A DNA stretch of 64,000 bases from NCBI GenBank assembly GCA_964016885.1, contig OZ024741.1:152830001-152894000 (forward strand). The letters are read 5' to 3'. Position 1 is the stretch's first letter. Each line of letters opens with the position of its first letter. Source of the stretch: Eledone cirrhosa (lineage: Eukaryota). Under the pieces are notes generated by a model. The model made no database searches and was not told the origin of the DNA. It saw only the letters and a program-made list of their open reading frames with translations. Position numbers and translations under genes: made by a program. Shown piece after piece: positions 4,055 to 64,000 of the stretch.

Positions 4055-4110
4055 TTATCTGATGAGGACGTACTGTTGATAATAGCTCAGTACCTCTGAA
4101 ATATGTATAA
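4055..4110 (+). ncRNA. Minimal type I hammerhead ribozyme
   Basis: CTGATGA(4059)-ggacgtactg..cagtacctct-GAAA(4098)-tatGTA-taa, followed by AATAAA. Confidence 0.7.
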
Positions 4111-33320: not shown

Positions 33321-33389
33321 TTGTGTATAATGGTAGCTATGCTAGGTATGCCAAAATTAGCACTCGATATTCAGCAGAGTAGAGTGTAG

Positions 33390-33680
33390 ATAGTATAAAG
33401 AAAACGAAAAATCAGTGATGCATCTGGACATAATTTATTGCGTGTTACAATTGTTTCGCCGGCAGGTAGCTCGAGACATGGTCCTTGTATGGATCTGGCT
33501 GATTCTACGGCTGCAGGTTCTTTCAGACACTGGTATTTCGTGTCTGAAAGAACCTGCAGCCGTAGAATCAGCCAGATCCATACAGGGACCATGTCTCGAG
33601 CTACTTGCCGGCGAAACAATTGTAACACGCAATAAATTAAGTCCAGATGCATCACTGATTTTTCATTTTCTTTATACTAT
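33390..33680. repeat. ~141 bp-arm palindrome carrying an HHR on each strand
   Basis: Arms 33390-33530 and 33540-33680 with a 9 nt spacer. HHR on + at 33539-33629: cgtgt-CTGAAAGA..GAAAC-aatt-GTA-acacg, then AATAAA. Confidence 0.9.
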
Positions 33681-33687
33681 ATATATA

Positions 33688-33823
33688 TATTTATTAAAAT
33701 AACAGATGAAAGTTTAAGCAAAGAATCGCTGCTTTCACCCTTAACGGGATCTTCTGAAAGATCCCGTTAAGGGTGAAAGCAGCGATTCTTTGCTTAAACT
33801 TTAATCTGTTATTTTAATAAATA
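33688..33823. repeat. ~65 bp-arm palindrome with a partial HHR-like core
   Basis: Centred near 33755; CTGAAAGA-tccc gttaa gggt-GAAA. Another fragment of this family lies at 6252-6290. Confidence 0.8.
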
Positions 33824-33907
33824 TTTGCTCTACGGTTCTTATATATTTGATATGTATTTATCCTTATCGAGCCCCCTTTGGATTTTAGTCTTCATATTTA
33901 TTATTAT

Positions 33908-33953
<46 letters not shown>

Positions 33954-34145
33954 CGGCGATGAATTTCTTTTGCAAGGTTTTTGATATGAAATGAGGACGT
34001 TTCTTGTATTCGTCTTATTCGGGAAACCTCTGGTAATGAGGTAATTATATTGTATTGTTTATTATACATTAAATTTAGCTCTGTAACTTACATAGAGCAC
34101 TCTTCACTCCTATGACTTTTTCAATTTTCAACGGAAACTTCAATA

Positions 34146-34201
<56 letters not shown>

Positions 34202-34242
34202 CGAAACATAAGTCAATTGCATGAACTCATAATCTTTTATTT

Positions 34243-34298
34243 ACTGCTATATATATTTCGATGATAGCCATTGAGTGGCTATGACCTCATCAGGCAGT
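34243..34298 (-). ncRNA. Canonical type I hammerhead ribozyme
   Basis: Minus strand: actgc-CTGATGA-ggtcatagcca ctcaa tggctatcatc-GAAA-tatat-ATA-gcagt, then AATAAA; a weak ISYYKPQLN GIY-YIG tail lies upstream (about 34560-34590). Confidence 0.85.
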
Positions 34299-35450
34299 TA
34301 GTCAGTTCTTAGATATGCCAGCTCTGTGTTTATGGTGTTGATGGTATCAGAACCTTGGGACATATGAGCTTGTTAGGAATAATTTAATGTTGTCAGCAGG
34401 AATAATCTTAATCCTCATTGGTCAGTTTGTAGATGCTAGTAGGATTGGTATTTGACCTCAAAGAGGCAGGTGGTGTTGTAAAGTTCAAACCGTCAGGCAA
34501 GATGACAATAATTCCATATGACTGATTTTCACAAAAAGCATTCCTGGTCAGATATATATTCAATTGGGGTTTATAGTATGAAATTCGATACTACAGGTCA
34601 ATCTTAAATTGAAGAATTTATGTGGAGTGGTACTACTGAAATTATGGTTAGAGTAGAATACTAGAAAATTTACAAATAAAAAGACTTATGTTGGTTGGCT
34701 TGCACATACATTCACACCCACCCCCACAGACACACACACACACATCCACACATACAAATTGAGGAATTTATGTGGGGTGATAATACTAAAAATTATGGCA
34801 AGAGTCAAATACTTAGAGAGTTTAGAAATAAAAAGACCTATGTTGGTTGACTTGTACATACACTCACACCTACCCCTTCAGACACACATACACATCTACA
34901 CACACAGATCCATACAGGTGTGTATATATATATATGTACGCACAAGTGCACATATATATACGACAGAGGCCCTCAAATCCAAGTCTAAGGCAGACATAAA
35001 ACTAGGTGGGTGTTATTTTTAAAGAAAAGTAAAGTGGGTATTTGGAAAAGTTATTGTTTAGACTATACAAAGTAGAGTGTGATATATATCTTCACAGCAA
35101 TAGCTTGGGGGCTTTGGAGTTTGGGCGAATCCCTTAGTACACATACACTTTTATACCTCTGGATGCGTGTATGTCTATATACACATGTGCACTCATACAA
35201 GAGAGCATATACAAACATACTCCTAAGCATACACTTGAACATTTTTCAAATGCAACCTGGGGTAATAGTATTTCGTTGCGTTCGCATAAGTGTGTACACT
35301 CACGCAATCCCAGTGTACACACACTATGTACGGTTGCGGGCACTCATTTATGTGTATGGTGTTATTACCTTGGTATGATTGTTCTTCCTGTGTGGGCCAC
35401 TTCCGGGTGGGAGGGGTTCCTCAGGTGCAATAAACGAGGTTTTGTTGCCT

Positions 35451-35525
<75 letters not shown>

Positions 35526-35529
<4 letters not shown>

Positions 35530-36133
35530 AAAAGAATGAAACGAAATTTCATTTCTCACTCTTAGTACGGCTGATACCTAAATATAAGTATGTATACGTA
35601 TATACATATATGTGTACAGACGCACAGTAGTATGTATATATATATACATACATGCACACATATATATATGTACGTATGGGTTTACCGAACATTTATTATA
35701 ATGTTCGGTTTGTTTGTAAACAAACAGCCCGAATAGTTACGCCGTACAGTGCTTGGCAACCATCGTCGCCCTTTTGTTCAACACTGACACAGGAACGATG
35801 TACTAGTTTCAAGCTTATAAGCTATCGTGAGCATCGTATACCTTTCTGTCAGATGATTGAAAGTTTGAAAGTATATACTTTCCTTATGCATATTAACGGC
35901 TGAGCAACCTAATTTGCATATCGAGTGAGTTAGTCGGCCGGGCATACCGAAAACGATAAATGGAAAAGAATGAAACGAAATTTCATTTATCACTCTTACT
36001 ACGGCTGATACCTAAATATAAGTATGTATACGTACATACATATATTTGTACAGACGCACAGTAGTATGTATATATATACATACATGCGATAAATGGAAAA
36101 GAATGAAACGAAATTTCATTTTTCACTCTTAGT
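35526..36133 (-). mobile_element. HHR family C, ~434 bp unit in partial tandem (HHR 35795-35837, core G5>C)
   Basis: atggaaaagaatgaaacg recurs at 35526, 35960 and 36093. Minus strand: acgatg-CTCACGA-tagct/agctt-GAAAC-ta-GTA-catcgt. Confidence 0.75.
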
Positions 36134-36264
36134 ACTGTGGTTACCTTCGATTCCGGGTTGAATCGGAGGTAACCACAGTAAGGTACTCAATACATAGCAG
36201 AGTATAAAAGTTTTAATACAGAAGAGCTTCTACTGTTTCATTCGTGAGAAATCATCAAGAAGCT
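36134..36264 (-). mobile_element. HHR family B copy (HHR 36225-36264) with terminal hairpin
   Basis: Minus strand: agcttc-TTGATGA-tttctcacgaat-GAAAC-a-GTA-gaagct. Confidence 0.7.
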
Positions 36265-36474
36265 GGCTGTCCACGTAAATGGTAGTATTTATGTATTTCC
36301 TTATCTAGTGGTAGGAGGGGTGGGGATTGGGATGGGTGTAGGTCATTGGTTGAAGGATTTAAAGAAAGGGGATTCATTAAAAGCTAATTCTTTCAAGCTA
36401 TAATATTAACAAAGGCAGAAAGAATACTGTAAACAAGTTCAAAATTGGAATACCAAAATTGGAATATATATATA

Positions 36475-36576
36475 ATGAAGGAAGTGTGGTAAGAAACCAG
36501 TTTGACCATAACGCACCAGAGTACTCGATACTTTGGGTAGTAGAGTGGGTAATAGGAAAAGGGTCCTGACCCTTTT

Positions 36577-36580
<4 letters not shown>
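36475..36580 (-). mobile_element. HHR family A 3' fragment with fold-back end
   Basis: Reverse complement of 3730-3820; hairpin ataggaaaagggtc-ct-gacccttttcctat. Confidence 0.75.
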
Positions 36581-36650
<70 letters not shown>

Positions 36651-36654
<4 letters not shown>

Positions 36655-37415
36655 TAAAGTGGTCCTTCATCAGTGATCTTCCAACCATCATCGGTATTTC
36701 TTCGCTTTAAAGACCATATATCTCCGGTTGGTGCGAGCAGCGGCTAAAGAAAGTCGTTGGGACACGTAAATAAAGGGAACAGCGAGAGTGTAAACAAACA
36801 AAGATGGTGAAGCAACGAAAAATGAGGAAGAACGAGTCAAGTCCCAAATTTCCATGAATATAAGTTCGGTGAAATCGTGAACGAGAGAGAATAAAGAGCA
36901 TCAAACCTGGTTGAAATGTGAGCAAGGAAGGAATTCCGTACAGGTCTAACGGGAGGAAGAAGGAGTCTAGTCCGTGAATTCGGTGAACATAAGTTCTGTG
37001 AAATCGTAGACGAGAGAGAGAAAAAAGGCGAACCAGCCTGGCCAAGCGTGCGAAAGAAAAGAATTACGCACAGGTCAAACGGGAAGAAGGAGGAGGAGGA
37101 GAGGTAGTAACAGAGAGTGAGTGAGTGAAGGGTGAGGAAGAGGCTAACAGAGAGTGAGTGAGTGAAGGGTGAGGAAGAGGCTAACAGCGGGGGGAAAAAA
37201 TATGTGTAAATATGAGAATAAACGTGCTGCGGGGTTGCAAATGGGTTACATATGAATAAAGTAGTCCTTCATCAGTGATCTTCCAACCATCATCGGTATT
37301 ACTTCGCTTTAAAGACCATATACCTCCGGTTGGTGCGAGCAACGGCTAAAGAAAGTCGTTGGGACACGTAAATAAAGGGAACAGCGAGAGTGTAAACAAA
37401 CAAAGATGGTGAAGC
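36651..37415. repeat. ~602 bp non-coding unit in partial tandem
   Basis: tgaataaagt..ccttcatcagtgatc occurs at 36651 and 37253; further copy at 54169-54450 and an inverted fragment at 4426-4485. Confidence 0.8.
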
Positions 37416-37599
37416 GTCGTTTTGGAAGCCTCAACAATGCAGATGGGTAAATCTCCGGGTAACAGAATCCGGTGGTGAAGAGAGAGATGTAAGGGAATGT
37501 AGATGAGATGTATAATGTGTAGAGGAACGTAGGAATGAGCGTAAAAAATTAAAATAATAACACGAGCTAGAGTTACCTTGGGAGAGATTTAATTGTCCC

Positions 37600-37760
37600 T
37601 ATATTTCGGAATTATTTAGAGAATTTTATGACAAGCAAAAGAATGGTCAAGAGAAATAGGATGGGAGAATTGTTCTGGTTCAGTGAATATGGCTAGTTCG
37701 CTGGGGTGTCAGAGTTCAGATTTTCTATTGAAATAAAGAAAGTAGACATATGTATGTTTA

Positions 37761-37827
<67 letters not shown>

Positions 37828-38260
37828 GAAGGTGATTCTATTGGTAGAAATGGGGGAGGGAGTTGTGTGTGTGTGTGTATATGGGCGTTATGTGTGTGTG
37901 GGGGGGGGGGGTATGTTAAGATGGAGAGAATATATTTTGTGTGTGTAGGAAAGTGATTCTATTAGTAGAAATGGGGAAGGGAGTTGTGTGTGTGGGGGGG
38001 GGGTTATGTGTGTGTGTATGGGTATTATTGTGTGTGTGGGAGTATGGTTAGCATGTTAAGATGAAGAGAATATATATTGTGTGTGTGTGTGTGTCTGTGT
38101 AGGAAAATGATTCCGTTAGTAGGAATATTTTTGAATGAACATATTTTCCTTACTTATTCGTATTTGTTCTGTTGTATTGTCAGCGCAAACGTATGTTAAG
38201 GTTTATTTAGTTCGGGTTTTTATTTTCTAAAGTAGAAGGTGTTATGTGTGTGTGTATGTG
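37600..38260 (-). mobile_element. Inverted 5' pLTR copy of the second PLE
   Basis: Reverse complement of about 41270-41905. Confidence 0.85.
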
Positions 38261-38344
38261 TTAGACAAATTTAAAATAGAAATATAACTGTTACGATTAA
38301 GAGCCAACTCCAACGAAGAAAAATTCAAGTCACTCGACCAACAG

Positions 38345-41220
38345 ATGGTAACAGAAATCTCAAGGCACTCTGAAGGCCTACTCTATGAAAAAACCTTAAA
38401 ACTTTGGAAAGAAAACTGTGAGGATGAAGAACTAACATCCCTCCAGCGATGGGGAAAAAACGCCACCTGGTTCAACAACTACGAAATGGATTTCAAAAAT
38501 GAACAATATACAGGTAACCCATTTTTAAAACAAATTAAAACTCACACACCACATGCACAACAAATAACAAAAAAAGTAACAAAACGTCCAACATACCCCC
38601 AGCAAAACTATAACGATAATCACAGAACCCATAGACAAAACTATAACCCTACTAACAAAAAACGAAGATCCCCCAACACAAGACAGGACCCGATCCGCAG
38701 ATCACAACCCACACAAAACCTATTCCAGAACCGTAGACCCCTGCCCACACAGAGTCTGTTCCAAAATCGTAGATCCCAACCCACACAAAGGAACAAAATC
38801 TACAACCCGGACTATCAACAAACCGAGCCTCAATACGTCCGAAACTTCTATACAAGACCACACAACAACAGAGGAAATACCATTAGATATAATAATACCG
38901 AAAAAATATTTCAGAAAAATCATTTTTTAGACTAAAGCTACAGGACCCACGACACCCGGTGGCACAAACCGATTTTGAAAAACCGAAAATAATCAACCTT
39001 TCAAATACAAACCTCTCAGCCCAACAAGTAAACATTCTCTCCAAAGGACATTCACACCAACACCACAATACTCTAACCTCAATGAGATAAATGACGATAT
39101 CTCACACTTCTGTAGAAAATTACGTCTCACAGAGGAATTCTTTGACAAGGAGAATAACGACCAATCAATTGTACGGAATAAAAGCAGCTACAACCCAACA
39201 AATGGTAGAAACAGAGTTCTGGACAAATTTTGTGACCACATAGCCACTTTCCCATACCATAAAATACCGCAACCTAAACCCAACACGAGTCGAAGGGAAT
39301 GGGAGATTATCCATGAACTAAAAAACAATACGGACAATATAATTAAGGAAGCGGACAAGAGAAGTAGTGTTGTCATTATGGATGCTGAAAAATATAAAAA
39401 TTCTATGCTCTCTCTCTTACAAAATACTAATTACTATGAAAGAGTAAAAGACTACCAGAAATCAAAAACAATGACCAGATTAAACACACTGATTTGTCGA
39501 TACCAGGAAGACTTAACTAAAAAGGAACGCGATTATTTAAGACATTTTGAATACAAAACCAGCAACCTTTACGGACTTCCGAAGATCTACAAGTGTAAAA
39601 TAATTAACGATGCCTGTAAACAATCCACCTCAGCCTGCGTGAACACACAATACCCCCACAGACCTTAAATTAAGACCAATTGTAGCGGGCCCACAATGTG
39701 AAACACACAGACTGAGCAACTTTATAGACATACTACTAAAACCAATTCTCAAACACATACCAAGCCTTGTAAGAGACTATCTGGACCTCTTAAACCACCT
39801 CCCCAAACATGTCAATAACGATACTATTATTGTGTCTTACGATGTAGTGAATCTCTACACAACGATCCCACACCAATACGGACTACAAGCAAAAGGATTC
39901 TGGCTAGAGAAATATCCCAATGAGATACCTGACAGAATAGAAAAAAGCTTCATCACCGAGGGATTAAAATTTATCTTACAGAACAACTTTTTTTATTTCG
40001 ATGGCAGTACTTGCAAGCAAATATAGGGGGCTGCGATGGGTACAAAATCCGCTCCGACTTATGCCAACTTAGTCATGGCACACTTAGAAGTCCAGATTTA
40101 TGAACAGTCCAAATCAAAATACGGATTGAACTTCCACAAATATTTATCAGAGAATTGGAAACGCTACTTGGATGATTGTCTCATTCTTTGGTCCCACGCA
40201 CTCGACCAACTGAATGATTTCAAAAATTTAATAAACGGCATCAATAACCACATCCAATTCACAATGGAATACAGCCAAGATCAACTCCCATTTCTGGACA
40301 TCTTAATCTTAAAAAAAGACACAAATATTGAAACTGACATACACTACAAACCAACAGATTCCAAACAATACCTGCTATTCACCTCCAACCATCCAAAGCA
40401 CACGAAGACGAACATTCCTTTTAACCTAGCAAGAAGAATTTGCACAATTGTCTCCAATTATGAAACGCGAAATAAAAGACTTCAAGAATTAAAGGAAATT
40501 CTACTCGAAAGATAGTACCCACCATTACTAATAAATAATGGAATAGAAAGGGCTAAAGTAATAGGCATTGATGAATTACGAAAACAGAAACAAATTCAAG
40601 GTACGTCCAATATTCTATCATATATCTCAATACACAACCCAAGAAATGCGGAAGCTTACAACACTATTCACAAGAACATCCCACTACTGAAACAAGACCC
40701 AAGAATGAAAAAAGCCCTTGAAACACACAAAATAATCAAAAGCAAAAGACAACCGAAATCACTGAAAACATTACTCACCAATGCCAAATTACCTACCACA
40801 AACCCACAACCAACTGTCAAAAAATGTGGTCGCTCTAATTGTGTAACCTGCACTCACCTCATTGAGGGCAACACGTATACATTTAAATCAGGACAAAATT
40901 TTGCTGTAAAAAATCACTTCACTTGCTCATCAAAAAATCTAAGTTATGCCATTAAATGTAAAGGATGCAATGAAGATTATATAGGACAAACTAAACTCAC
41001 ACACAGAAATAGAATGACAGTTCATCGCCAACAATTACGAGATCCAACCACGAGACAGATACCACTAAGCGCACATCTAGACATTTGCGCAAGTAATAAG
41101 ACACCCAAATTCCAAGTCTTCCCATTTTACCTTTGCGCTGACAATACAACAGAACAAATACGAATAAATAAGGAAAATATGTTTATTCAAAAATATAGAC
41201 CAGCATTAAATATGGTTTAA
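38345..41220 (+). pseudogene. Penelope-like element (Neptune-like) RT + GIY-YIG, several stops and frameshifts
   Basis: IIKEADK, LYGLPKIYK, LRPIVAGP, SYDVVNLYTTIP, GAAMGTKSAPTYANL, KRYLDDC, LPFLDI, linker CGRSNCVTC, YAIKCKGCNEDYIGQT and FIQKYRPALN. Confidence 0.92.
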
Positions 41221-42355
41221 TATACATTATGTCAACACCATAACATGCTAACCATCCAAACAGACACACACGCACACACATAACCCCTTCTACTTTAGAA
41301 AATAAAAACCCGAACTAAATAAACCTTAACATACGTTTGCACTGACAATACAACAGAACAAATACGAATAAGTAAGGAAAATATGTTCATTCAAAAATAT
41401 TCCTACTAACGGAATCATTTTCCTACACACACACACACACACCCACACACACACACAAAATATATATTCTCTTCATCTTAACATGCTAACCATACTCCCA
41501 CACACACATAACACCCATACACACACACACACACACACACACATAACACCACCCCCCCCATACACACACAACTGCCTCCCCCATTTCTACTAATAGAATC
41601 ACTTTCGTCCACACACACAAAATATATATATTCTCTCCATCTTAACATACTCCCACACACATAACACCCATATACACACACAACTCCCTCCCCCATTTCT
41701 ACCAATAGAATCATCTTCCTATACACACACACACACACACACACATACACAAATAAACATACATATGTCTACTTTCTTTATTTCAATAGAAAATCTGAAC
41801 TCTGACACCCCAGTGAACTAGCCATATTCACTGAACCAGAACAATTCTCCCATCACGTTTCTCTTGACCATTCTCTAAATGGCTACAAAACAAATTCCGA
41901 AATACGGGCGCGAAATTTAATGAACTTGTTCACGTGAGAACCATAATTTCATTTATAACCAATCAGATTACATTTTTTTGGAAAAAGCCTTCGTGGGCCC
42001 CTTTTTTTAAGTAGAAAGTAATTCAAACACTCATATATGAAAAAACAACCTGAGCACACACACACCCGCCCCTTGTTTGAAGAACTTTGTAACGCGAACT
42101 GGCGCAAAATTTATTATACTTATTGACCAACCAATCAAATTACTTCTCTAAAAACCTGGCGTTTCGAGCCACTTTTTTCCATATAAAACAAGTAACATTC
42201 AAAGACCAACCAGATGTGAGAAAAACCACAGACCCTCCATCTCAACTCTACTTTTGAAAAGCAGAAGAACTGCGAAACCGGTAAAGGAACCAAATAAATA
42301 TATATATATTTTTTTTTAAATAAGACTCCAGTTGCATTTTCGATTTCATCTTTTT

Positions 42356-42443
<88 letters not shown>

Positions 42444-42945
42444 TGTTATACTTGGGGAGGGTCATATTTGCGTAATATTGCCAGAATTAATAACAGAACA
42501 CACTCACTGTTTGGTTGGTTTTCGCTTCTCGCGAAATATATATATATACTGAATTGGTCTGTCCCAGTCATTCATTGAGCAACATCGGTGAAGTTGGCAC
42601 CCTTAACTCACAGTTGGGTGTGGATGCATTCATGTATATATGTGTGTGTCCGCATGTATCTGTGTGTTTCTAAATATATTGTTAATAACTCCCTCTGGTC
42701 GAGCAATCTTTGAAGTGTGGGGACAGCTGGAAAGCTTCCATTACTCATACTTCTCGCCTTCTTCACCACCTCTTCTACGGCCTCGATATAAATACCCCCT
42801 CCGTTTCCGTGGTATTTTCTTCGGGGTTATAAGAGGCTTAGCTCTGTTTCTCGACCGTTATATCGCGTGACTATCTCCCCCTCCGCCTTTTGGGATTCTT
42901 TCTCACGTCGTGTAGACGCGTTCTTGAGACTAGTAAAATGAGGTA

Positions 42946-43035
42946 TCCTCTTGATAAGTCGGCAGACCTCGCAAGGACTCTATATCTTTATGATATATTG
43001 TTTTTGTTTATGCCACGAAACTACGTAGTCGAGGA
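42946..43035 (+). ncRNA. Type I hammerhead, U3-A8 core variant
   Basis: tcctc-TTGATAA(42951)-gtcggc..gccac-GAAAC-tacgta-GTC-gagga. Stem III is palindromic (ACTACGTAGT). Confidence 0.75.
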
Positions 43036-43105
43036 ATTTAGGAGCAGTTTAGGTATGATACATTTTATTACTAATTATATCTAAATGTTTCTTCTCTCTT
43101 CATAA

Positions 43106-43140
<35 letters not shown>

Positions 43141-43269
43141 GTGGATACATATATATATAGGTGTCTCTTAATAAGCCGATTAACCTCACAAGGATGATGC
43201 ATTTTTATCATGCAGTAAGTTTCACACGGATCGGCGAAACTGTAGTTGGGACTTTGAAGAAAAAATACC

Positions 43270-44825
43270 CACCTCATTGATGACCCTTTGGAGCTTGGAA
43301 TCATCTGCAAAGATTCTTATGTTGCTTCGCTTGATGATGTCAGTAATATCATTAATGTAGATGATGAAAGGAAGTGGGCCCAACACAATGTCTTGTGGGA
43401 CGCCACTCCTGATATTGGCTGGACTTGATTTTACTCCTTCGACTACAACATGTTGGGCTCTGTCTGTCAGGAAACACTTGATCCTCTGTAGTAACTTTCC
43501 CGAGACACCAATATTGGATAGTTTTTTCAATGGAATTTTATGATCAACCCTGTCAAAGGCCTTGCTGAAATCAAGGTAGATGACATCAGTGTTGGAGCTC
43601 TCTCCCAAAGCTCTCAAAACATCATCAAAGTGATGCAGGAGACGCGTTAGCCAGCCCCTTCCACAACGGAGCCCATGTTGGTTGGAGTTCAGCAGGCCGT
43701 TGCTTTCGAGAAATTGGGTTATTCGTGGTCTCACCACCCTCTCAAATACCTTGATGATATGAGAGGTGAATGAGATCGGACGGTAGTTCACTGCAAGGGA
43801 CTTATTTCCCTTTTTTGAAAACTGGGACAACGGACTGGGACAGTTTTCAGGAATATAGCCAGTATCCATTGAGTTCCTCCACAGATTAGCAAGAGGAAAT
43901 GCAAGTTGGTGTCTACATACCTTCAGGACACAAGCAGGGAACCTATCGGGATCTACTGCTGAATTGTGTCTAGTTTCATTTGTTGCCACTGAGAGATCAG
44001 GGGCGCCAAACGTTATGTCCGATATAGTGTGTTGGGGATTAACATCACTGATACAGCCCAGATCGGCCATATCAGGATTGCTGAAAACGGAGCAGTATTG
44101 TTTCTGCAGTATCTCGCCCATGGTATTGGCATTATCTTGGAGTGTGCCATCTTTATCAACTAGAGGGCCAACAGTGGAGACAGTGACCTTGTGTTTTTTT
44201 CGCAAATGAAAAGAACACTTTGGGGTTGAGTTTGATTTTCTCAATGGCCCACTTCTCTTCAGCTGTTCTTTGGTTATTGATGATGGTCTTCATGCATTGT
44301 TGGAAGCTATATTTATTTGATTCAAGCAGGTCGATAGCCGTCGAATGTGTGTGTTGCTGTTGGCAGTATTTTAATGTGTTAATTTTTTTGTTCGTTCTTT
44401 TTATTTTTCTGATAATAGTTTTTTTCTGTTTTGGGGGATACTGCACTTAATTTTGTTCACAGGTTTTGGTGGGGCGTGCTTTGCACATATATTTGTGACA
44501 GTGTCTACAAAGATCTGCCAGGATGTTTTGATGTTGGTGAAAATGTATGCCTGTGTAAAAGACCAGTCAACATGTCATAGCTCGTTCATGATTGCATCTC
44601 AGTTGGTATTATAGAGATCCATCTCATAGTCTGAGAGAAGGGTTTTTTTCTACTGTAATATTATGTATAGTGTTAGTGTGGTTACTAAACACTAGGTCCA
44701 GAATGTTCTTCTGATGCCTTGTTGATGCAAGGACAAGTTGGGACAAGAAAAACCCATTCATAAAGTCGAGAAGTGACTCAACTGCTTCTTTGTCAGTGGT
44801 TGGGGTTGGAGTGCCTGGCTTCAAA
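43270..44825 (-). pseudogene. CR1/L2-group LINE ORF2 fragment
   Basis: NILDLVFSN, NYRPISFTS, YLDFSKAFDRVDH, SGVPQDIVLGP and IFADDSKL. Confidence 0.88.
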
Positions 44826-44892
44826 CTGTTTATATATATATATATATACCAACTAGAAATAGATTGACATATATATATATATAATTTTTTTT

Positions 44893-45060
44893 TCTATTTT
44901 AGGCACAAGGCCAGCAATTCCCAGTACATTACTGGTACTTTATTTTATCGACGCCGTAAGGATGAAAGGCAAAGTTAACCTCGGCCGGATTTGAACTCGG
45001 ATCGTAAAGGGGCGTAACTATGCTGGAAAGCATGTCCGACCCTCTTCCGATACTGCCAAA
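44893..45060 (-). mobile_element. Meta-core SINE
   Basis: Reverse complement of the 3059-3240 family. Confidence 0.85.
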
Positions 45061-45412
45061 GTTTAACTAGAACTTCAAATATAGATACCTTTTAAAATGA
45101 TTAATCTCCTTTGTATATATTTCTTTAAGTAAGAAATATATTTCACCAATTAATCCGTAAAACACAGTAGTCAAATTCTTGGATGTTCACCAAAGGAGAA
45201 GAAGATAACTATCTGCGTTTACAAAGCAAATGCAAATCTGTGAATGACTCAATTGATTGTTGAGGTAATTCAGTTGAATAGACTCGGCTGCTATTTCTGG
45301 CTGTCGATGGTCCTATTCACGCCACTGAAATGACGTTGTGCAATGTGTGTATTTTTTAAAAAATGCAACACGTGGTTCGAGTCATTCACAGATTTGCATT
45401 TGCTTTGTAAAC

Positions 45413-48058
45413 AGTCCCAGCGTGCATCTAAGATCCCGTTCCAGTCGCCCACTAACACTAAAGAGCGGGACGTTCCAAGAAAGGTCTCCAGACGCCGGAA
45501 GAAATCAGGCCGCCCTGCTCCTGTCGGGGCATAGACGGCCACTAGCCTGAAAGCTTGCCCGTCTCCGCTGGTCACGTCCAGCACCACCAACTTACCTTCT
45601 GGGTCCAGGAAGATGGCCCGTATGGCGAGATCCAAACCTCTCCGAAAAAGCACAGCAACTCCTCCCCCCGATCCAGGACGGCTGGGAGATGGGTACACAT
45701 CGTAGCCGCCGAAGATCGGTGCGAAGGCCCGTGCTTCAGAGATTCTGGTCTCGCTGATGGCCACTACATCTATGTTTAGTGACCTGAGGTCGTTGAGCAG
45801 GTGGCCCTGCTTCCTTGACGACCAAGCCACGTGCATTTATGCTGCCTATTCTGAGTGAGGTCATGTTGAAAAGGAGTGGAAAAGATGGGAAAGACCACTT
45901 ACCTTACTTCTCGTAGAGAAAGGATGGTTGCTCCATCCTTTTCACTGCTTGTGGCCTCCTCCGGATGGATGTCCTTATAAATCCTCCTGGAAAGTGCTTG
46001 TCGGAAGTCTCCGATGTCTTTGGGGAAATTTTGTTTTAGTGTCGTGTACGTTTTCTGTGTGATGCGAGTGATTTGTATGTGTGGAGGTGGTGTGAACTTT
46101 TGGGGTGTTGTGTAGTCTTTTTCTGTGATGCTGGTGTTGTGTTGGATGTAGTGTAATAATTGGTTGTTGTTCAAATTTAATGCTGTGTAGTGTGTATCGT
46201 TTTGGTTGTTTTGTTTTGTTTGCGTTTGTTGTGGGTTTGTTCTGTTTCGCTTTTTGGTGACTTTTGTGGTGATGGTGTTGGTGTTTGTGGTGATGGGGTT
46301 GGTGATGCTGGTGTGGATGGTGGCATAGCTGTCCTAACTTTTTTGTTTGTTAGTTTATTTGTTTCCCCCTGTATTTTGTTTTTGGAGGGGGAAGGAAGAG
46401 GATTTTTTTCTTTTTGGGGTTCTTTTTCTTTTTTTCTTTTTTCCTGATACAGTTTCCCACACCTCGTCGTCACAATCTGTCTCCAGTTGTGATAGGCCGG
46501 GGAGTGGAAAATCCTCCACAGGCGTTGGTTTTTGGTTGTGGCGTGGTGGATGGTGGAGGCGCTGGTGCTAGTTCTGGCGCGGTGGGTGGTGGTGGTGGTG
46601 TTGGTTTTGCTACTGTTGCTGGTGTTGTTGCTGCTACAGTTGCTTCTGTTGTTGCTGCTACAGTTGTTGCTGCCATTTCTGCTGCTGGTGGTGTTGATGG
46701 TTGAGTCACTGGGGTGGGTAAGAGAGGTGGCCTCAACTTTTTAGCCTGAGGGCAGAAAGCCTTTAGGTGGGTTCCTTCACCACAAACGACACACCTAGGC
46801 CTTCTACTCTCAACGATTACGGTGAGGTGGCTGCCGTCAGTGAGGTCTATCACCTCTGGAATTTCCTCAATGCTTTTATGGTCCGCTTGGATCAGGAGCT
46901 CCATCCCAGATCCGGACCAGTCCTCCTGCTTTTCTTTTGTTACTTCAATTATTTTCGTGTTAGCCTCGATGCCGGCGAGCACGACAGCCATTAGCCAGGG
47001 AATTTCGATGGCTGGTGGAACGTAGGTCACCCTGATCTTTACGAGTCTCTGACCACAATAGCTTGGGACGAGTGTGAAGTCGTCACTTCTTAATGGGGCC
47101 ATGGAGTGCTTTCTGGCTTCCTGTGGTGTTCCAAAGAACACGTCCACAGTTCCATATTTCTGCCCACGTCTGATGTGGGTTTTTTGCGCCCACACATGTC
47201 CCAAAGCTTTTTATATTTGGGACTCGGATACCCGTTCCACTCGGCGTGATTTTGTGTTTATCGTCCGATATGACACGGTGCATAGGCGTCGATGTCCCAT
47301 TTTATTAGATGGGGGGGGGGCTGACCCTGTACCCATCTTTTTTTACCATTCGCTTGGCTTCATTTAATTCAACCTGGCTTACCTCAATTGTTTCGCTTTT
47401 CTTGGCTGCTTTGGTAAACGACACATTTGCGCTGGTGTTGATGTTTTTGTTATTATTCTCATTGTTGTTGTTGCTGTTGTTGTTATTGTTATTTTTGTTA
47501 TTGTTATTTTTAGTTTTAGTTGTGGTGGTGGTGGTGGTGGTGGCGTCAGTGGTGTTCGATGTGGAAGAGTCGATTCTGGGTGAATCCATTTCGATTTCAC
47601 CAGATAATAATTTATTCTTTTTTTGTTTCTGTTGTCGCTGTGGTGGTGGTGGGGGTGGCGGCTTTAACACCTGCAGTCATTGGTAATGGCGAGAAATGAC
47701 TGTCTGCATGAGACAAATTTAAATTATTGCCACTGCTTATATTTTTAGGGTTGGCAAACGTAGTAATATTTACAATGGTGGTGTTGGTGTGAGGTGTTAG
47801 TTTGTGAGGAAGGCTGTCAGCTTCGTGTGGCTGTGAGTCGTCCATGTTTTTTTCAAAGAAAGTTTTTGTTTGATAATTATAAAAGTTTAAATTTTGGGCT
47901 CAAGGTCCCAATCTTTTTGAGTGTCCTTTTCAGAAAGCAATATATGTGAACTTATAAACACTTAACAACAAAAATTTTCCATAACTGGTAATTTGAAACA
48001 ACTGAAAACAACAAAACTTTGCGGAGCTCACGATAATACGATTTCCTACGTAGGTCGC
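45413..48058 (-). mobile_element. L1/Tx1-like LINE 5' half (5'UTR, ORF1, APE), RT missing
   Basis: ORF1 pieces 46177-47845 with zinc knuckle CVVCGEGTHLKAFC; APE motifs IDVVAISETR, RLVAVYAP and LVLVGDWN, cut off at 45413. Confidence 0.8.
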
Positions 48059-48077
48059 CAATAATAATAATAATAAT

Positions 48078-48265
48078 AATTGTTTCTACTTTTGGCACAA
48101 GGCCACAATTACCCAGTGCATTACTGGCACTTTATTTTATCGACCCCGTAAGGATGAAAGGCAAAGTTAACCTCGGCGGGATTTGAACTCAGAATAGCAA
48201 GGGCCGTAACTCTATGCGTCAAAGCATGGCGTCCGACCCTCTACCGATACTGCCAATCCACCACC
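48078..48265 (-). mobile_element. Meta-core SINE, full-length
   Basis: Reverse complement of the 4865-5050 family. Confidence 0.85.
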
Positions 48266-48344
48266 CTTAATAATAATATGTATACTTATATATGAGTTAT
48301 ATATAATTATAAATATGAAAGGGTAGAATTAAGCACTAGAATTT

Positions 48345-48410
<66 letters not shown>

Positions 48411-48414
<4 letters not shown>

Positions 48415-49175
48415 GATTGGTGCTCTGAAATAGAGATGTATACATGAATATATGTATAGTATATTTGGCAATATACTGTATGCTTAATTAAAAATATTTT
48501 GAAGACCTTGCGTTATTATTTTAAAGTAGTGACTATGTCACTTACTTCTTTTTTCAACAAACAAAGGGAGATAAGCTGACAGATCTGTTTCACACTGTTG
48601 GTGATCATCAGAGCTTAGCACTCGCCGACGTTTGTTGAAATTTATAGAGGCTGGATTCTTATAGAGTTCCAGTAATAATCAGGAACTGATTATACAGAGC
48701 GATTGCCGGTCCAGCAAATATTGAAAATTAGGATTGGTGCTCTGAAATAGCAATGTATACATGAATATATGTATAGTATATTTGGCAATATACTGTATGC
48801 TTAATTAAAAATATTTTGAAGACCTTGCGCTATTATTTTAAAGTAGTGACTATGTCACTTACTTCTTTATCCAACAAACGAAGGGAGATAAGCTGACAAT
48901 TTTTGCTGGACCGGCAATCGCTCTGTATAATCAGTTCCTGATTATTACTGGAATTCTATAAGAATCCAGCCTCTTTAATTTTCAACAAACGTCGGCGAGT
49001 GCTAAGCTCTGATGATCACCAACAGTGTGAAACAGATCTGTCAGCTTATCTCCCTTCGTTTGTTGAAAAAGGAAGTAAGTGACATAGTCACTACTTTAAA
49101 ATAATAGCGCAAGGTCTTCAAAATGTTTTTAATTAAGCATACAGTATATTGCCAAATATACTATACATATATTCA
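48411..49175. mobile_element. Retrozyme-like element: 317 bp unit, 1.5 tandem copies (-) plus an inverted copy (+)
   Basis: ttaggattggtgctctg occurs at 48411 and 48728; 48897-49175 is inverted; HHRs at 48572-48617 (-) and 49003-49048 (+). Confidence 0.88.
49003..49048 (+). ncRNA. Canonical type I hammerhead ribozyme
   Basis: taagct-CTGATGA-tcac caaca gtgt-GAAAC-agatct-GTC-agctta. Stem III is palindromic (ACAGATCTGT). Confidence 0.92.
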
Positions 49176-49187
49176 TATATATATATT

Positions 49188-49260
<73 letters not shown>

Positions 49261-49662
49261 TTTTGAAGTTTTCGCCCAGAAAGTAATTTTTTCAGATAAA
49301 ATTTTTTAGCTCTTATATAATTTTCTCTTGAGTTAAAAACTTGTTCAGACTTATCCTTGGTATTAGAAGGACAAGTGACAATAAATATAATGGGGAAGGC
49401 AACTTGCAAAGCTGGGGACAGAGCGCAGATATAGGGCAAACACCTATTTTTCGCTGTGGGAGCAGCAACATTTTAACTTTCGGATAATTACCTATTGCTA
49501 AGAGCCCCCCCCCCCCCCGATATTCCGTATGTGGTTGACAGCTGAGAGAAATGAGTAATTGGTATTGAGTAATATATATATACTCTCCTTACTATCCTTG
49601 CTTTCATATTTCTCCTTGCTCCACTTTTCTCATTGTATTTGTATATAAACAAGTACATAGAT

Positions 49663-50131
49663 ACAAGGAGAAGGGGAGAGCAGGGAGGAAAGGAGCGTAA
49701 GGAGAAAAGGAGAGCAAGGAGAGCAAAGAGAAAAGTAAAGCAAGGAGAGCAATGGGAACAATGAGAAAAGGAGAGCAAAGAGAACAAGGAGAACAATGAG
49801 AAAGGGAGAACAAAGAGAGCAAGGAGAAAAGGAGGGCAAGTAGAAGAAGGAGAAAAGGGGAGCAAGGAGAGCAATGAGAACGAAGAGAAAAAGAAAGCAA
49901 GGAGAGCAATAATTAAAAGAGAGCAAGGAGAGCCACGAGGAAAGGAGAGCAAGGGGAGCAAGGAGAAAAGGAGAGCAAGGAGAGCAATGAGAAAGAGAGA
50001 ACAATGAGAGCAATGAGGAAAGGAGAGCAAGGAGAGCAATGAGGAAAGGAGAGCAAGGAGAGCAATGAGAAAAGGAGAGCAAAGAGAAAAGGAGAGCAAG
50101 GAGAAAAGGCGAGCAAAGAGAGCAAGGAGAG
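49663..50131. repeat. Purine-rich minisatellite (AAGGAGAGC / AATGAG units)
   Basis: Directly visible. Confidence 0.9.
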
Positions 50132-50139
50132 GTTAAGGC

Positions 50140-50495
50140 AAATATTGCTCAAGTTATGCTGGAAGCAGTCAAAGGTGAAAAATCAACTGAAGAGGTACAT
50201 TCTGCACCAAAATGACTTTTCTTCCTTTATAAACATCGAGTTTTTGTCTTTTGTAACTCCTGGTACAAAAACTTTCTTCACGAGATTTTCTATCAGCACC
50301 GATTTCCTCGACAAAACTCTTCAACATGGAAGGATGATCCTGGTTACAAAAGTGGACTTGAAAAACTTGAGAAGACAGTTGTTGTGAATGATGTTGCAGA
50401 AAGAGGTGTCAAACTCATTCAGGATTACGATAACATTCTCACAAAAGAGGAAACTGAGAAACAATTTGTTATACAGATCGTTACCGAAAACCCAA
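50140..50495 (+). pseudogene. DNA transposase C-terminal relic (hAT/hATm-like)
   Basis: Broken-frame translation: FVTPGTKTFFTRFSISTDFL..WKDDPGY..VVNDVAERGVKLIQDY..LTKEETEKQFVIQIV. Confidence 0.6.
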
Positions 50496-50525
50496 CTGCC
50501 ACTAAATCCTCTCTTATGCAAAAAT

Positions 50526-50645
50526 AATTGTTTCTACTTTTGGCACAAGGCCAGCAATTATCCCAGTGTGTTACTGGTGCTTTATTTATCGGCCCCGTAA
50601 GGATGAAAGGCAAAATTAACCTCGGCGGGATTTGAACTCAGTCCA
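50526..50645 (-). mobile_element. Meta-core SINE, partial
   Basis: Tail, core and B box in reverse complement. Confidence 0.8.
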
Positions 50646-51108
50646 TAATAATGTTCAATATTCGGTGTTCAGTGTTCAAATTATTTTCTTGATTCTATAG
50701 AAATTATTGTTGTACATAAAAAAGCGTTTCTCTTAGAGAAGTTGTGTGCTTTATTAAGAAAACCTAATATTTTCAAGAATTTTTCAAATTAACTATTGGT
50801 AAATTTGATTCAGAACGTTTTAAAATATTTGCTTGGGTTGCCTGGATGTGTCCACATAAATTTCTCCGAGAAGAAAGAAGAAAATGGTCGAGATAGGGAA
50901 CAGTATACCGCTTTTGAACAGAATTAATCGTTGCGTATACTATGTTCCAAATTCAAGGCGTTTGAGGGTTGCCTAACGGTTTACGATTGAGCTGAAATTT
51001 TGCACACTCCGTGTTTTTAGAGAACAGGTCCATTAATGTTGCCATCTCATCACCCGGCTGAACATACAGTAACTCCGCATTACTTTCCCTGTATATATGT
51101 ATACATAC

Positions 51109-51165
<57 letters not shown>

Positions 51166-51168
51166 AAT

Positions 51169-51746
51169 TATCTTGAAGTTCTCGCCAGTTCTGGCGAGAA
51201 CTTCAAGATAAAAAAGAATCATCAATACTCCACCAACATGCTAAAATAGAACATAAGGGCAAATTAGAGAACATAGAAATAAAAATAGAATCTACACACA
51301 GAAAAGACGCAATGTTTAGACAAATCAGAGAGGCAATAAACATAAATGAACTCCAACCAAAATTAAATAGAAAACATAAATGGAATAGTAACATCACAAC
51401 TTACAATTAAGGAAAAAATGAAAACACACACACACATAGAACAAACAACCAACCAGTAACATGTAAATAAACAAATAAAAACACACACAGACACCCGGAT
51501 GTAACACATGCGCTAACTAAGCACACAACACACACAAAAACAAGATGGCGTAGGACAGAACAAAGGAGAGGCACAAAACAAAGAAAAGAATCCCCAGTCA
51601 CTGAAGAGGTCACAGAATGTGTGACGAAAGAACTTTGACAATATATGAACAACCGGAAATTTATAAATTCTTAAATTTATAATAAATTGGAGTGAAGGCA
51701 ACTGGTGCGTGTGTTTCTTATTGGCAACATGACCCTCCCAAAGCAT

Positions 51747-51751
<5 letters not shown>
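51169..51751 (+). mobile_element. PLE 3' relic: fold-back 5' end, GIY-YIG tail and pLTR with HHR at 51597-51639
   Basis: Perfect 20 bp hairpin at 51169-51210; QHAKIEH..RQIREAININELQPKLNRK; gtca-CTGAAGA-ggtcaca/tgtgac-GAAA-gaa-CTT-tgac. Confidence 0.75.
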
Positions 51752-51828
<77 letters not shown>

Positions 51829-51832
<4 letters not shown>

Positions 51833-52420
51833 CTAAAATTGCATAAAGATATCGTTTCTGAGAAAATTATAGGCACGCGCCATATCGCCTGCAAAGGAAG
51901 CTCAAAGAAAGAATTCCGAGTTGTTATTATAAAGTATAAATTCAAAACAAATGACATATATAAAAGCATATCTAACATTAAAACGGGAGAAAATTTGCAA
52001 TATATAAGAACATATAATTACAAATGAGCAGTATATTGAAATTTAACACAAATATTAAACGGAAATGCCGGATATTAAATCTTACTCTCTCGCACATAAT
52101 TCCTTTATGGCCTCAAAAACATGCTTCACCTTTGAAATGGTGAAGTTCTATGGTTAATTAGGATCATCAGCGAGAGAGAATCAACCATATGAAATTACAT
52201 CTTTAAGGACTGGCAGAACACGCACATGTAGTTTCGAAAAATCTACTGTGTCCTACTCTTGTCCATGTGATGTGAATATGTATGTTGATAGCTCAAATAG
52301 CAGCCATAAAACCATTCAACAATTAAAAAAAATCTCTACTAAAATACTATTCAGGAGCATATTTATATTACTAAAATGAATAAAGATGTCGTGTCTGAGA
52401 AAATTACAGACACGCACCAA
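51829..52420 (-). mobile_element. ~538 bp partially tandem unit with a decayed HHR (52085-52178)
   Basis: tactaaaat..ctgagaaaatta..cacgc occurs at 51831 and 52369. Minus strand: ctctctcg-CTGATGA...GAAT-tat-GTG-cgagagag, with an 8 bp stem I. Confidence 0.55.
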
Positions 52421-52557
52421 GACTGGGACGCAGTAGATTTTTCGTATATACTTTGGAGCTCTGTTGCTTAAGCAGCAGGTATAATTTCATGTTTCTGATA
52501 CAGGAGTATTCAATTTTCACCGTATGACGGTTAAAGATCTGGTGGTATTTGTGTCCT

Positions 52558-52603
<46 letters not shown>

Positions 52604-53495
52604 ATTAAACGGAATAGAAAATGCTGACAAATTGTTCACAGTTGAAAAATGGTTTAATTAGGAATAAAAGAGTATTAGTGATTGTATGGGTTAGTAGTCA
52701 GTTGTGGTTTTAAGTTTTTAAGTTTTTACCGGTTGCGCATTTCTAAATGCTTTTCAAAAATAATTTTGAGATAGAGTGTCCGTGCTGTTTGCTCTGATCT
52801 ATTCTTTTAACTATATATATATATATATATATATAGATGAGTGCTAAAAGCTTTTTCCAACATTAAGTTTCAAATTTAACAAGAATGGAGGAGAGAACCA
52901 AATTTTTCACAAAATTGTAGGAATCTTAAACACGGAAGTAGCTGTAAAAACAGCCTATCAAAAGTCGGGTTAAAACATAACCTCATAAGAAAGGAAGAAC
53001 GGCCAGGGAATGCGGGAGAGATGGAGAGAATGAAAGAAAGAGAGTCTAAAGCATATGATGAGAAACGAGAGAAGCATAACAAGAGAGAAAAGTGGGAATG
53101 AGAACAATGGCGCAAGCATTTTTTTTTTTTTTTTTTTTTAGAGAGTATTACGGAAGAGAAAAAACAGTGGAGAAAGGATTAAAAATGTAAACCAAAGAGA
53201 AACAAAGAAATATAGCATCGTAATCACCTCATCAGCTTCCTTTAAACCAACATGGTTTCGCGCGGTAAAATTTTAAGGTTTGCCCAGATTTTTGCTTTAT
53301 TTCTTGATTTTTCCTATTATTATGCGGGGAGTGGCCTAGAATGTATGAAATATTCTCGGAGAAGCAGATTTGAGTAAGGCTGTATTATAGTAGGGGGCTG
53401 CCCTATCGAAAATAGCTTGGTTAGAAGAGAGTTTAGAGATCCGCTGACTAATATTCTTAACTAGAAAACATTTTCCGGTTTATTTTCATCGGCAC

Positions 53496-53540
53496 GGGTT
53501 GAACAAGTTGGTCACCAGGGTTAACGAAACGTACGTACCT
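53496..53540 (+). ncRNA. Candidate hammerhead with 8-nt U-A core
   Basis: ggg-TTGAACAA-gttggtc/ggttaac-GAAAC-gtac-GTA-cct. Stem III is palindromic (ACGTACGT). Confidence 0.55.
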
Positions 53541-53745
53541 AGTATGGCGCCTTTGTACCAACTGGCCTTAATAATTATATATACATATATGTAAGTATAA
53601 ACACAATCTCTATTACTTGCAATTAACATGTCGACAGACAACGAAGGAAACAGAGTGTAAAAAATATAGTCTAAGTGGCTGCCATACTACCATATAAGGT
53701 ATTACAAAGGCGTTCCTACACATCGAATGGGTTATATATATATAT

Positions 53746-54577: not shown

Positions 54578-54653
<76 letters not shown>

Positions 54654-54773
54654 AACAAGTATGACCCCGACGACAGAGCTCAAGCCGTTTCGACAGCTAT
54701 TTCTGGACGCGCTATTTCGCGACGGTTATTTCTATCGTTATGGTCCATCTGGTTCCTTACCACAATTCGTTCG

Positions 54774-54813
<40 letters not shown>

Positions 54814-55112
54814 TAAAACATGTCTATAGAATCACCAGATAAAATATATACCGTTTCCTCTCCCAATTAGCATAATTAACCATATAAAAAATCGATTAGA
54901 CCAAGCTATAAGAATAAAGGCTCCTATGAAGAAATCTCCGACAAATAACTGAAAGCAGCCCTTCGCGACGGTTGCGACGGAATATTTATCAAGTATTTCG
55001 ACAGCATGTATAAATCGTCCAGATATACAGTCAACTAAACAGAATTAGGTGTAAAATAAACTAGGAGAAAAGTGAACATATTTAAACCTTTATATATATA
55101 TATATCGTCCAG

Positions 55113-55154
<42 letters not shown>

Positions 55155-55161
55155 CTGGACG

Positions 55162-55253
<92 letters not shown>

Positions 55254-55260
55254 ATCTGGA

Positions 55261-55306
<46 letters not shown>

Positions 55307-55311
55307 TCCAG

Positions 55312-55357
<46 letters not shown>

Positions 55358-55423
55358 CTGGACGTTAATTTTCATAAGGAAAGTATATACTTTCGAACGT
55401 TCAACTATCTGGCAGATGGGTAA

Positions 55424-55466
55424 ACGGTGCTGATGATGGCTAACAAGCTTGAAACTAGTGCATCGT
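55424..55466 (+). ncRNA. Family C hammerhead (cleavage triplet mutated to GUG)
   Basis: acggtg-CTGATGA-tggct/agctt-GAAAC-ta-GTG-catcgt, within the family C copy at 55365-55765. Confidence 0.7.
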
Positions 55467-55764
55467 TCCTGTGTCAGTGTTGAACAAAAAGGTGACGTGG
55501 TTGCCTTAACACCGTATGGCATGAATTCAGGCTGTTCAGTTTGTTTACAAACGAACAAAGCGACGTTAGCGCCGCTAAACTGATACGTGCATATATGTAT
55601 GTGTACCTGTATGCATATGTATGTATATATGTATATATATATATATATGTGCATGCTACTGTACGTCTGTGTACATATATGTATGTACGTATACATGCAT
55701 ACTTACATTTAAGTAAGTGCCATACTAAGAGTGAGAAATGAAATTTCGTTTTCATTTTGTTTCA

Positions 55765-55800
<36 letters not shown>

Positions 55801-55807
55801 ATCTGGA

Positions 55808-55873
<66 letters not shown>

Positions 55874-56145
55874 GTTTAAATATGTTCACTTTTCTCCTAG
55901 TTTATTTTACACCTAATTCTGTTTAGTTGACTGTATATCTGGACGATTTATACATGCTGTCGAAATACTCGATAAATATTCCGTCGCAACCGTCGCGAAG
56001 GGCTGCTTTCGGTTATTTGTCGGAGATTTCTTCATAGAAGCCTTTATTCTTATAGCTTGGTCTAATCGATTTTTTATATGGTTAATTATGCTAATTGGGA
56101 GAGGAAACGGTATATATTTTATCTGGTGATTCTATAGACATGTTT

Positions 56146-56189
<44 letters not shown>

Positions 56190-56309
56190 CGAACGAATTG
56201 TGGTAAGGAACCAGATGGACCATAACGATAGAAATAACCGTCGCGAAATAGCGCGTCCAGAAATAGCTGTCGAAACGGCTTGAGCTCTGTCGTCGGGGTC
56301 ATACTTGTT

Positions 56310-56340
<31 letters not shown>

Positions 56341-63884: not shown

Positions 63885-64000
63885 GCTAACCTTAATTATA
63901 ACCTTATCCTTAACCCTAATCCTGTCGCTAACCCTAACCCTAACTCTAGCCCTAACCTAACCCACCCTAATCATAACTGTTATCCTAACACAAACCCGAA
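63885..64000. repeat. Degenerate (CCCTAA)-like repeat
   Basis: ctaaccctaaccctaactctagccctaacctaaccc. Confidence 0.7.

Follow-up and report, generated by a model that had tools for sequence, protein, structure and literature searches.

Two families of hammerhead-like motifs in Penelope-like elements (PLEs) of Eledone cirrhosa carry a fixed extra nucleotide in the core, between A6 and position 8. In our preferred reading, which we hold with moderate confidence, RNAs of both families would cleave slowly as dimers, with the 3–8 pair moved one letter along. Representatives of both lie in the window, the 64,000-nucleotide (nt) stretch of contig OZ024741.1 (assembly GCA_964016885.1, positions 152,830,001 to 152,894,000) that was analysed: family F1, with the core letters CTGAAAGA at 33544, and family F3, with TTGAACAA at 53499. 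The letters CTGAAAGA are also read at 33754, and the initial annotation had described all three sites as unrelated families sharing an 8-nt core, YUGA-NN-RA, with C–G/U–A covariation at positions 3 and 8.

The motifs at 33544 and 53499 have the features of minimal type I hammerheads in PLE terminal repeats, of which the window copies are truncated fragments (Table 1). The conserved GAAA and an NUH cleavage triplet are present in both (GAAAC...GUA at 33613–33624 and 53526–53537). A strict 8-nt type I descriptor returned 33544 (+), 53499 (+) and 33526 (−), a second F1 copy that the initial annotation does not list, and had no match in 300 dinucleotide shuffles; the descriptor was devised after the motifs had been seen, and this result shows non-randomness only. 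A scan of the window against Rfam, with E values up to 10, returned no hammerhead family among the matches listed (150 of 329), all of which were microRNA-like and fell on simple repeats. The window is rich in TA and TACA repeats.

To establish whether the extra letter belongs to the families or to single copies, the first BLAST samples of F1, F2 (the family at 33754) and F3, which were biased towards the core of the query, were replaced by samples anchored outside the core; genome-wide searches refer to the 3.0-Gb genome. F3 is an old family, with 83–90% identity between copies. Thirty copies anchored 3′ of the core were sampled out of 73 genome-wide. The sequence TTGAACAA was exact in 15, carried one substitution in 8 and was degenerate in 1, and the core region was absent from 6; a 7-nt core was found in 0 of the 24 informative copies. 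The F3 core (UUGAACAA in RNA letters) is family-fixed at 8 nt. Most copies in this sample have a G directly 3′ of the core.

In F1, the extra letter is fixed in the younger subfamilies only, the other sampled subfamilies having 7 nt. Genome-wide, 2818 sites (control, 0) exactly match a 19-nt anchor located 3′ of the core. The sample comprised 82 anchored copies (the first sites on C1 and one C3 region), and 46 of these retained the native 5′ flank, with cores of 7 nt (n = 24), 8 nt (n = 21) and 9 nt (n = 1). In a FastTree phylogeny with the core masked, rooted at the midpoint and without support values, the cores form a ladder: CCGTCGA, CCGACGA, CCGAAGA, CCGAAGGA, CTGAAGGA and CTGAAAGA. A single branch of this tree holds every 8-nt copy (n = 21), along with the 9-nt copy and a lone 7-nt copy that looks like a secondary deletion. 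We infer that the change ran from 7 to 8 nt because other PLE families of this genome have 7-nt cores. The core at 33544 (CUGAAAGA in RNA letters) is subfamily-fixed, not family-fixed. In an alignment of 17 F1 copies, C3–G8 in the shifted register is unchanged in 17 of 17, 84% of stem cells are paired and five stem pairs are changed on both sides, although these cells count related sequences, not independent events. The family sampling called for in the initial annotation shows that the extra nucleotide is not copy-specific either at 33544, with the single branch of 21 copies, or at 53499, with no 7-nt copy.

Covariation at positions 3 and 8 was assessed with five genome-wide patterns that share one 3′ constraint; in two of them, one letter is disallowed so that the standard form does not match. 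The C..G pattern had 669 matches (control, 27) and the U..A pattern 193 (control, 63); the mismatch patterns had 86 (U..G; control, 96) and 77 (C..A; control, 197). The standard pattern CTGANGANG (CUGANGA+N) had 118 matches (control, 38), which is no census of ordinary hammerheads, and the excess of the shifted form (669 versus 118) under the same 3′ constraint is likewise not a full census. Two further families, F4 and F5, emerged from this YUGANNRA-type search, which the initial annotation had proposed. F4 (CUGAAUGA) accounts for ~89 of the first 100 C..G rows and for most of the 669 matches, and has hundreds of copies, the lists having been read by eye. One-letter-changed F4 copies make up ~34 of the 86 and ~40 of the 77 mismatch rows; F4 flanks are ~17% diverged, and the mismatch level is that expected from decay after insertion. 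No family with a C·A or U·G mismatch as its usual form was seen in the genome-wide pattern lists.

F4 and F3 have the same stem I (CAGG/CCUG), stem II base and 3′-flanking sequence, and F5 (UUGAAUAA), a small family with the same stem II base, probably belongs to this lineage. Across F3, F4 and F5 (alignment A1), 90% of stem cells are paired and G10.1–C11.1 occurs in 16 of 16 copies, although the selection pattern forces it for most rows. YUGA-NN-RA is the sole register that keeps both the 3–8 pair and A9 in all three families; stem II then starts right after A9, with no unpaired base between 9 and 10.1 and no ninth nucleotide between stems I and II. Unbiased support for the shifted pair comes from the F3 sample, the F1 alignment and the genome-wide class counts, and consists of sequence complementarity only. 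On the evidence of these sequences, the exchange of C–G for U–A at the shifted 3–8 pair is real between the sister families F4 and F3. The covariation described in the initial annotation thus holds between F4 and F3/F5, whereas its original form, F1 against F3, joined insertions that are probably unrelated.

The third site, 33754, is ruled out as an 8-nt core. The letters CTGA form the 4-nt loop in a palindrome made by fold-back of an F2 copy, and CTGAAA is the reverse complement, in the inverted arm, of native TTTCAG. In a sample of 30 F2 copies obtained with a query lacking the core, the stem II part is kept in 25, and 18 of these 25 read TT-CAGAAGA; the remainder are single variants or other junctions, and CTGAAAGA occurs in the window's own copy only. 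Read as a motif, 33754 would have a stem I of just 2 base pairs (bp) in a sequence locked inside a hairpin, and the three-stem junction fails. Native F2 has a 7-nt hammerhead-like fold with U·U at the base of stem II and a U4A core (CAGAAGA; L091–L120). The letters reported in the initial annotation are thus present at all three sites, but at 33754 they are junction letters and not a family-level example. The junction recurs in most of the best 30 matches to a query that contains it and represents either a derived subfamily or a hot spot of fold-back. In three runs of one sample, which may be the assembly's own source, 132–152 contigs per run diverge from the window past position 33759, where they run on in the reverse complement of the sequence natively upstream in F2. 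Fold-back junctions of truncated F2 copies often lie within ~15 nt 5′ of the hammerhead core (L091–L120; window 33754–33757), and the F1 junction in the window (33531–33539) has the same place relative to its core, which suggests a template-switch hot spot at stem I.

The elements that carry these motifs were characterized from remnants of PLE reverse transcriptase (RT) and GIY-YIG endonuclease, which are common in the sampled loci. In F1, an endonuclease open reading frame (ORF) with GIY-YIG lies ~2.1–2.6 kb upstream of the motif and, in tandem copies (L185, L214), the next RT ORF begins ~200 nt downstream; in F2, two hammerhead-like motifs flank an RT and endonuclease ORF (L190); and in F3 and F4, endonuclease remnants lie 0.2–0.5 kb upstream of the motif. 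A PLE-type ORF of this genome has named relatives in Argonauta. A motif scan found DKT in F1 and F2, RWR in one F1 copy and CxCX5C in F1–F4, and GIY-YIG look-alikes were found for the F2 endonuclease. Pfam gave no RT or GIY-YIG match for these ORFs, a PDB sequence search likewise did not name RT, and no F5 endonuclease or ORF was recovered among the sampled loci. DKT, an RW-basic motif, CxCX5C, a C-terminal GIY-YIG and (TA)n targets, the features of the Hydra clade, are present, and the host elements are probably Hydra-clade PLEs. The initial annotation's description of three unrelated families is right only in part, since all three are PLE families with homologous RT/endonuclease.

Judging from these sequences, F1 and the F3 lineage probably acquired the extra letter in separate events. 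Evidence for two origins is given by the 80% DNA identity between 7-nt and 8-nt F1 copies, by the lack of any alignment of F1 to F3/F4 and by endonuclease identities of 71% versus 28–29%. F3 and F4 endonucleases are 69–76% identical in DNA over short stretches and their proteins form one clade (support 100/100); the F1 endonuclease clade has support of 97/97. The endonuclease tree was a quick one of 15 rows, in which row S5 is a nested F2 endonuclease; an L190 fragment upstream of an F1 copy, also a nested F2 endonuclease, was left out. Two results weigh against independent gain: this tree leaves the node on one versus two origins open, and the approximately unbiased (AU) test does not reject a single clade of all 8-nt families (p = 0.24).

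In hammerhead chemistry, G12 is described as the general base and the 2′-OH of G8 as the acid (PMC6155905), and the C3–G8 pair keeps G8 positioned. G12, G8 and C3–G8 are all retained in the shifted register; the extra base comes to lie within the uridine turn. We propose that the extra base would be taken up in the turn (positions 4, 6 and 7), the part of the core that varies among the PLE motifs of this genome, with C3/G8, G5, A9 and G12–A14 left in place. Two transcript copies may pair through the palindromic stem/loop III (AC-AATT-GT in F1, AC-GTAC-GT in F3 and AC-TTAA-GT in F4), and cleavage would trim tandem PLE transcripts. The variant would have arisen twice. In F1, a 7-nt U4C core would have received an inserted G; the F3/F4/F5 form may have needed no indel, having slipped from UUGA-N-AA-A, an ordinary PLE form that is readable in both registers, as are the U3 cores UUGAUAAA and UUGAAAAA of PMC4209133 Fig. 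S3. A natural insertion after A6 (A6a) had low activity in vitro, explained by loss of the U4-phosphate contact (PMC3088659), and minimal PLE hammerheads are described as cleaving weakly and only as multimers, as dimers through palindromic stem III (PMC4209133). Because A6a activity is low and PLE minimal hammerheads cut weakly as dimers, slow dimer cleavage is inferred here; that the 8-nt cores cleave at all is a likely prediction from their sequences.

Several observations weigh against this reading. The F1 motif has A·C at 10.1–11.1 in 17 of 17 aligned copies, with G10.1–C11.1 absent, so that the complete fold assigned in the initial annotation to both motifs holds for 53499 and only with this caveat for 33544. 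Other F1 subfamilies carry U4C and A6U, which, with the A·C base, suggests that constraint has loosened. The minimum-energy fold is not the hammerhead for either window copy (z of +0.85 for 33544 and +1.42 for 53499). Perreault et al. expect an insertion after A6 to be detrimental (PMC3088659), and in the in vitro assays of PMC11167929 a PLE hammerhead was dispensable for insertion, with no read ending where it would cut. The alignment A1 rows, in which 3–8 pairing is 16 of 16 in the shifted register and 0 of 16 in the standard one, were picked by patterns that force the shifted pair, and the covariation amounts to one inferred compensatory event in one lineage. Within a transposon family, fixation is what descent from a master copy produces, and it does not prove selection. 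The initial annotation's term 'selected core variant' is not sustained, as selection rests on that one event. A stronger proposal, that YUGA-NN-RA is a functional core subclass under selection that evolved twice in PLEs of this genome, on one of these two occasions by slippage of the bulge, with a uridine turn tunable to damp cleavage and whole PLE clades invisible to CUGANGA searches, seems doubtful to us.

The same observations bear on whether the cores are catalytically dead or nearly so, with stems kept for RT/endonuclease recognition, for end definition or by inertia and with the extra letter as a founder effect, an explanation that we consider possible but not probable. In its favour, F1 subfamilies, F2, F6/F7 and a CCGTTGAT family have fixed cores with U4C, U4A or A6U, F1 has A10.1·C11.1 throughout, and Naiad PLEs thrive without canonical hammerheads; hammerhead mutants had no effect on PAc insertion in vitro (PMC11167929), and A6a activity is called low (PMC3088659). 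Yet the six F1 core types differ only at positions 4, 6 and 7, with C3, G5, G8 and A9 persisting; F4 differs from F3/F5 at both 3 and 8 with the pair kept, and no family with a C·A or U·G majority was seen; and canonical U4 was regained in F1 after the insertion, if the rooting is right. We regard as improbable an ordinary PLE form, CUGANGA followed by an unpaired base between 9 and 10.1, with a 3–8 mismatch and no insertion at 7. A spacing of 8 nt from stem I to stem II is the published norm (CUGANGAH in PMC4209133 Fig. S3) and F3, F4 and F5 lack a ninth, but this register leaves 3–8 unpaired in every A1 copy and demands G8U and A9G in F4 and G8A and A9G in F1, where the shifted one keeps the pair and A9. 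Least credible of all is that insertions private to single copies, or artefacts at junctions, gave rise to the extra letters. This does hold for 33754, for one F8 copy (L442) and for false F6/F7 matches in long stems II; at 33544 and 53499 it is refuted by the samples anchored outside the core, and F4 has the 8-nt form in hundreds of copies.

The motifs resemble the minimal PLE hammerheads of Cervera and de la Peña 2014 (PMC4209133) in their terminal repeats, inverted pairs, short stem I, palindromic stem/loop III and 8 nt between stems I and II, and U3–A8 covariation was already known. The consensus given there is CUGANGA+H, in contrast to YUGA-NN-RA; the latter register is required by 0 of the 56 representatives in Fig. 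S3 of that work, whose descriptors fix the core spacing. The variant is also not unprecedented, since the A6a hammerhead of Perreault et al. 2011 (PMC3088659) is a natural, slow but active RNA with an extra nucleotide after A6. A6a is a rare single variant, whereas the insertion here is fixed in transposon families that number hundreds of copies, and it is seen with C3–G8 as well as with U3–A8. De la Peña and Flores 2001 reportedly described one extra core nucleotide with the same linker length, but between A9 and G10.1 rather than between A6 and 8. The Hydra-clade PLEs of Craig et al. 2021 (PMC8557442) share DKT, RW-basic, CxCX5C, C-terminal GIY-YIG and TA-repeat targets with the elements described here, and many listed Hydra motifs have the U·U of F2 at the stem II base. 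The Hydra rows of its File S2 have CUGANGA cores in 26 of 26, unlike those reported here, and were found with a descriptor requiring them. As the initial annotation held, CUGANGA descriptors would miss the present motifs. Lunse et al. 2017 reportedly catalogued ~150,000 PLE-linked hammerhead variants. No report of family-fixed YUGA-NN-RA cores was found in the literature searched by full text and core strings; both Lunse et al. 2017 and PMC4209133 supplementary file 1 lay outside that search and may bear on novelty. What appears new is a lineage-fixed 8-nt core in PLE hammerheads with one true 3–8 swap; A6a and U3–A8 covariation were already known.

Fixed non-canonical 7-nt cores occur in several PLE families, and their changes cluster in the uridine turn. 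F1 loci (L121–L150, L181–L220) have CCGACGA, CCGAAGA and CCGTCGA, which are U4C, with A6U in one; further fixed cores are CCGATGA (U4C) and CCGTTGA+T (U4C, A6U), the loci listed being L235, L431, L440 (F6, F7) and L071:2658 (+). F6 and F7 were rejected as 8-nt families, as their matches fall inside long stems II and the true cores have 7 nt. F8 was also rejected, being 7 nt apart from the private one-base core insertion in L442; this young family (L444–L463; 95–97% identity; 1016 first-look candidates) has a U3–A8 core (TTGAGAA or TTGACAA) and loop III GTAC. Among viral contigs, stems I and II both reached 3 bp or more in 1 of at least 120 matches to the C..G pattern, which suits minimal type I only, and none of three pattern matches in metagenome contigs had a convincing stem I by eye.

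Elsewhere in the window, ordinary-core hammerhead-like motifs lie at 4059 (+), 34293 (−), 42254 (+) and 51601 (+), with cores CTGATGA (twice), TTGAAAA (U3–A8) and CTGAAGA+G, the last two in multi-copy families. The 42254 motif has, ~1 kb upstream, a PLE-type thumb/endonuclease ORF remnant at 40186–41211 (+), which is 43% identical to the L206 ORF. Inverted arms of 485 nt (1–485 and 2081–2565) surround a broken PLE RT/GIY-YIG ORF (~464–2246) at window 1–2565. Long inverted repeats at 48430–49190 and 54623–56340, with arms of 294 to 331 nt that are 96–100% complementary, are probably fold-back insertions of other elements, and a degenerate TAACCC (telomere-type) repeat of 11 copies occupies 63899–63963.

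Table 1. Features of the F1, F2 and F3 hammerhead-like motifs, in window coordinates
Feature	Position	Strand	Details
F1 PLE terminal repeat, fold-back insertion (inverted, 5′-truncated)	33385..33685		junction 33531–33539, directly 5′ of stem I
Second F1 hammerhead-like copy	33441..33530	−	inverted arm; same 8-nt core at 33526–33519; predicted cleavage after 33446
F1 type I hammerhead-like motif	33539..33629	+	stem I, 33539–33543 with 33625–33629
F1 motif, core CTGAAAGA	33544–33551	+	8 nt
F1 motif, long stem II	33552–33612	+	A·C mismatch at its base
F1 motif, 3′ part		+	GAAA 33613–33616; palindromic stem/loop III (AC AATT GT); predicted cleavage after A33624
F2 fold-back palindrome	33685..33826		67 paired positions; right arm runs on as unpaired tail to ~33910
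CTGAAAGA at F2 fold-back junction	33754..33761	+	no hammerhead core; CAGAAGA in native F2
Remnant of native F2 hammerhead-like motif	33758..33799	+	core end; stem II with U·U at base
F2 remnant, 3′ part			GAAA at 33775; 5-bp stem III; U17 at 33795; stem I 5′ strand lost
5′-truncated terminal fragment, old F3 PLE family	53470..53580	+	83–90% identity to other copies
F3 type I hammerhead-like motif	53496..53540	+	stem I, 53496–53498 with 53538–53540
F3 motif, core TTGAACAA	53499–53506	+	8 nt
F3 motif, stem II	53507–53525	+	G10.1–C11.1 present
F3 motif, 3′ part		+	GAAA 53526–53529; palindromic stem/loop III (AC GTAC GT); predicted cleavage after A53537

Should the 8-nt cores prove able to cut, an optional position between 6 and 8 would have to enter the hammerhead consensus, and PLEs reported to lack canonical hammerheads would need to be searched again. 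In the F1 subfamilies, the core changes step by step in a natural series while the scaffold stays almost the same, and F3 and F4 form a natural 3–8 swap. Together, the series and the swap bear on the importance of the uridine turn and on the need of PLEs for cleavage.

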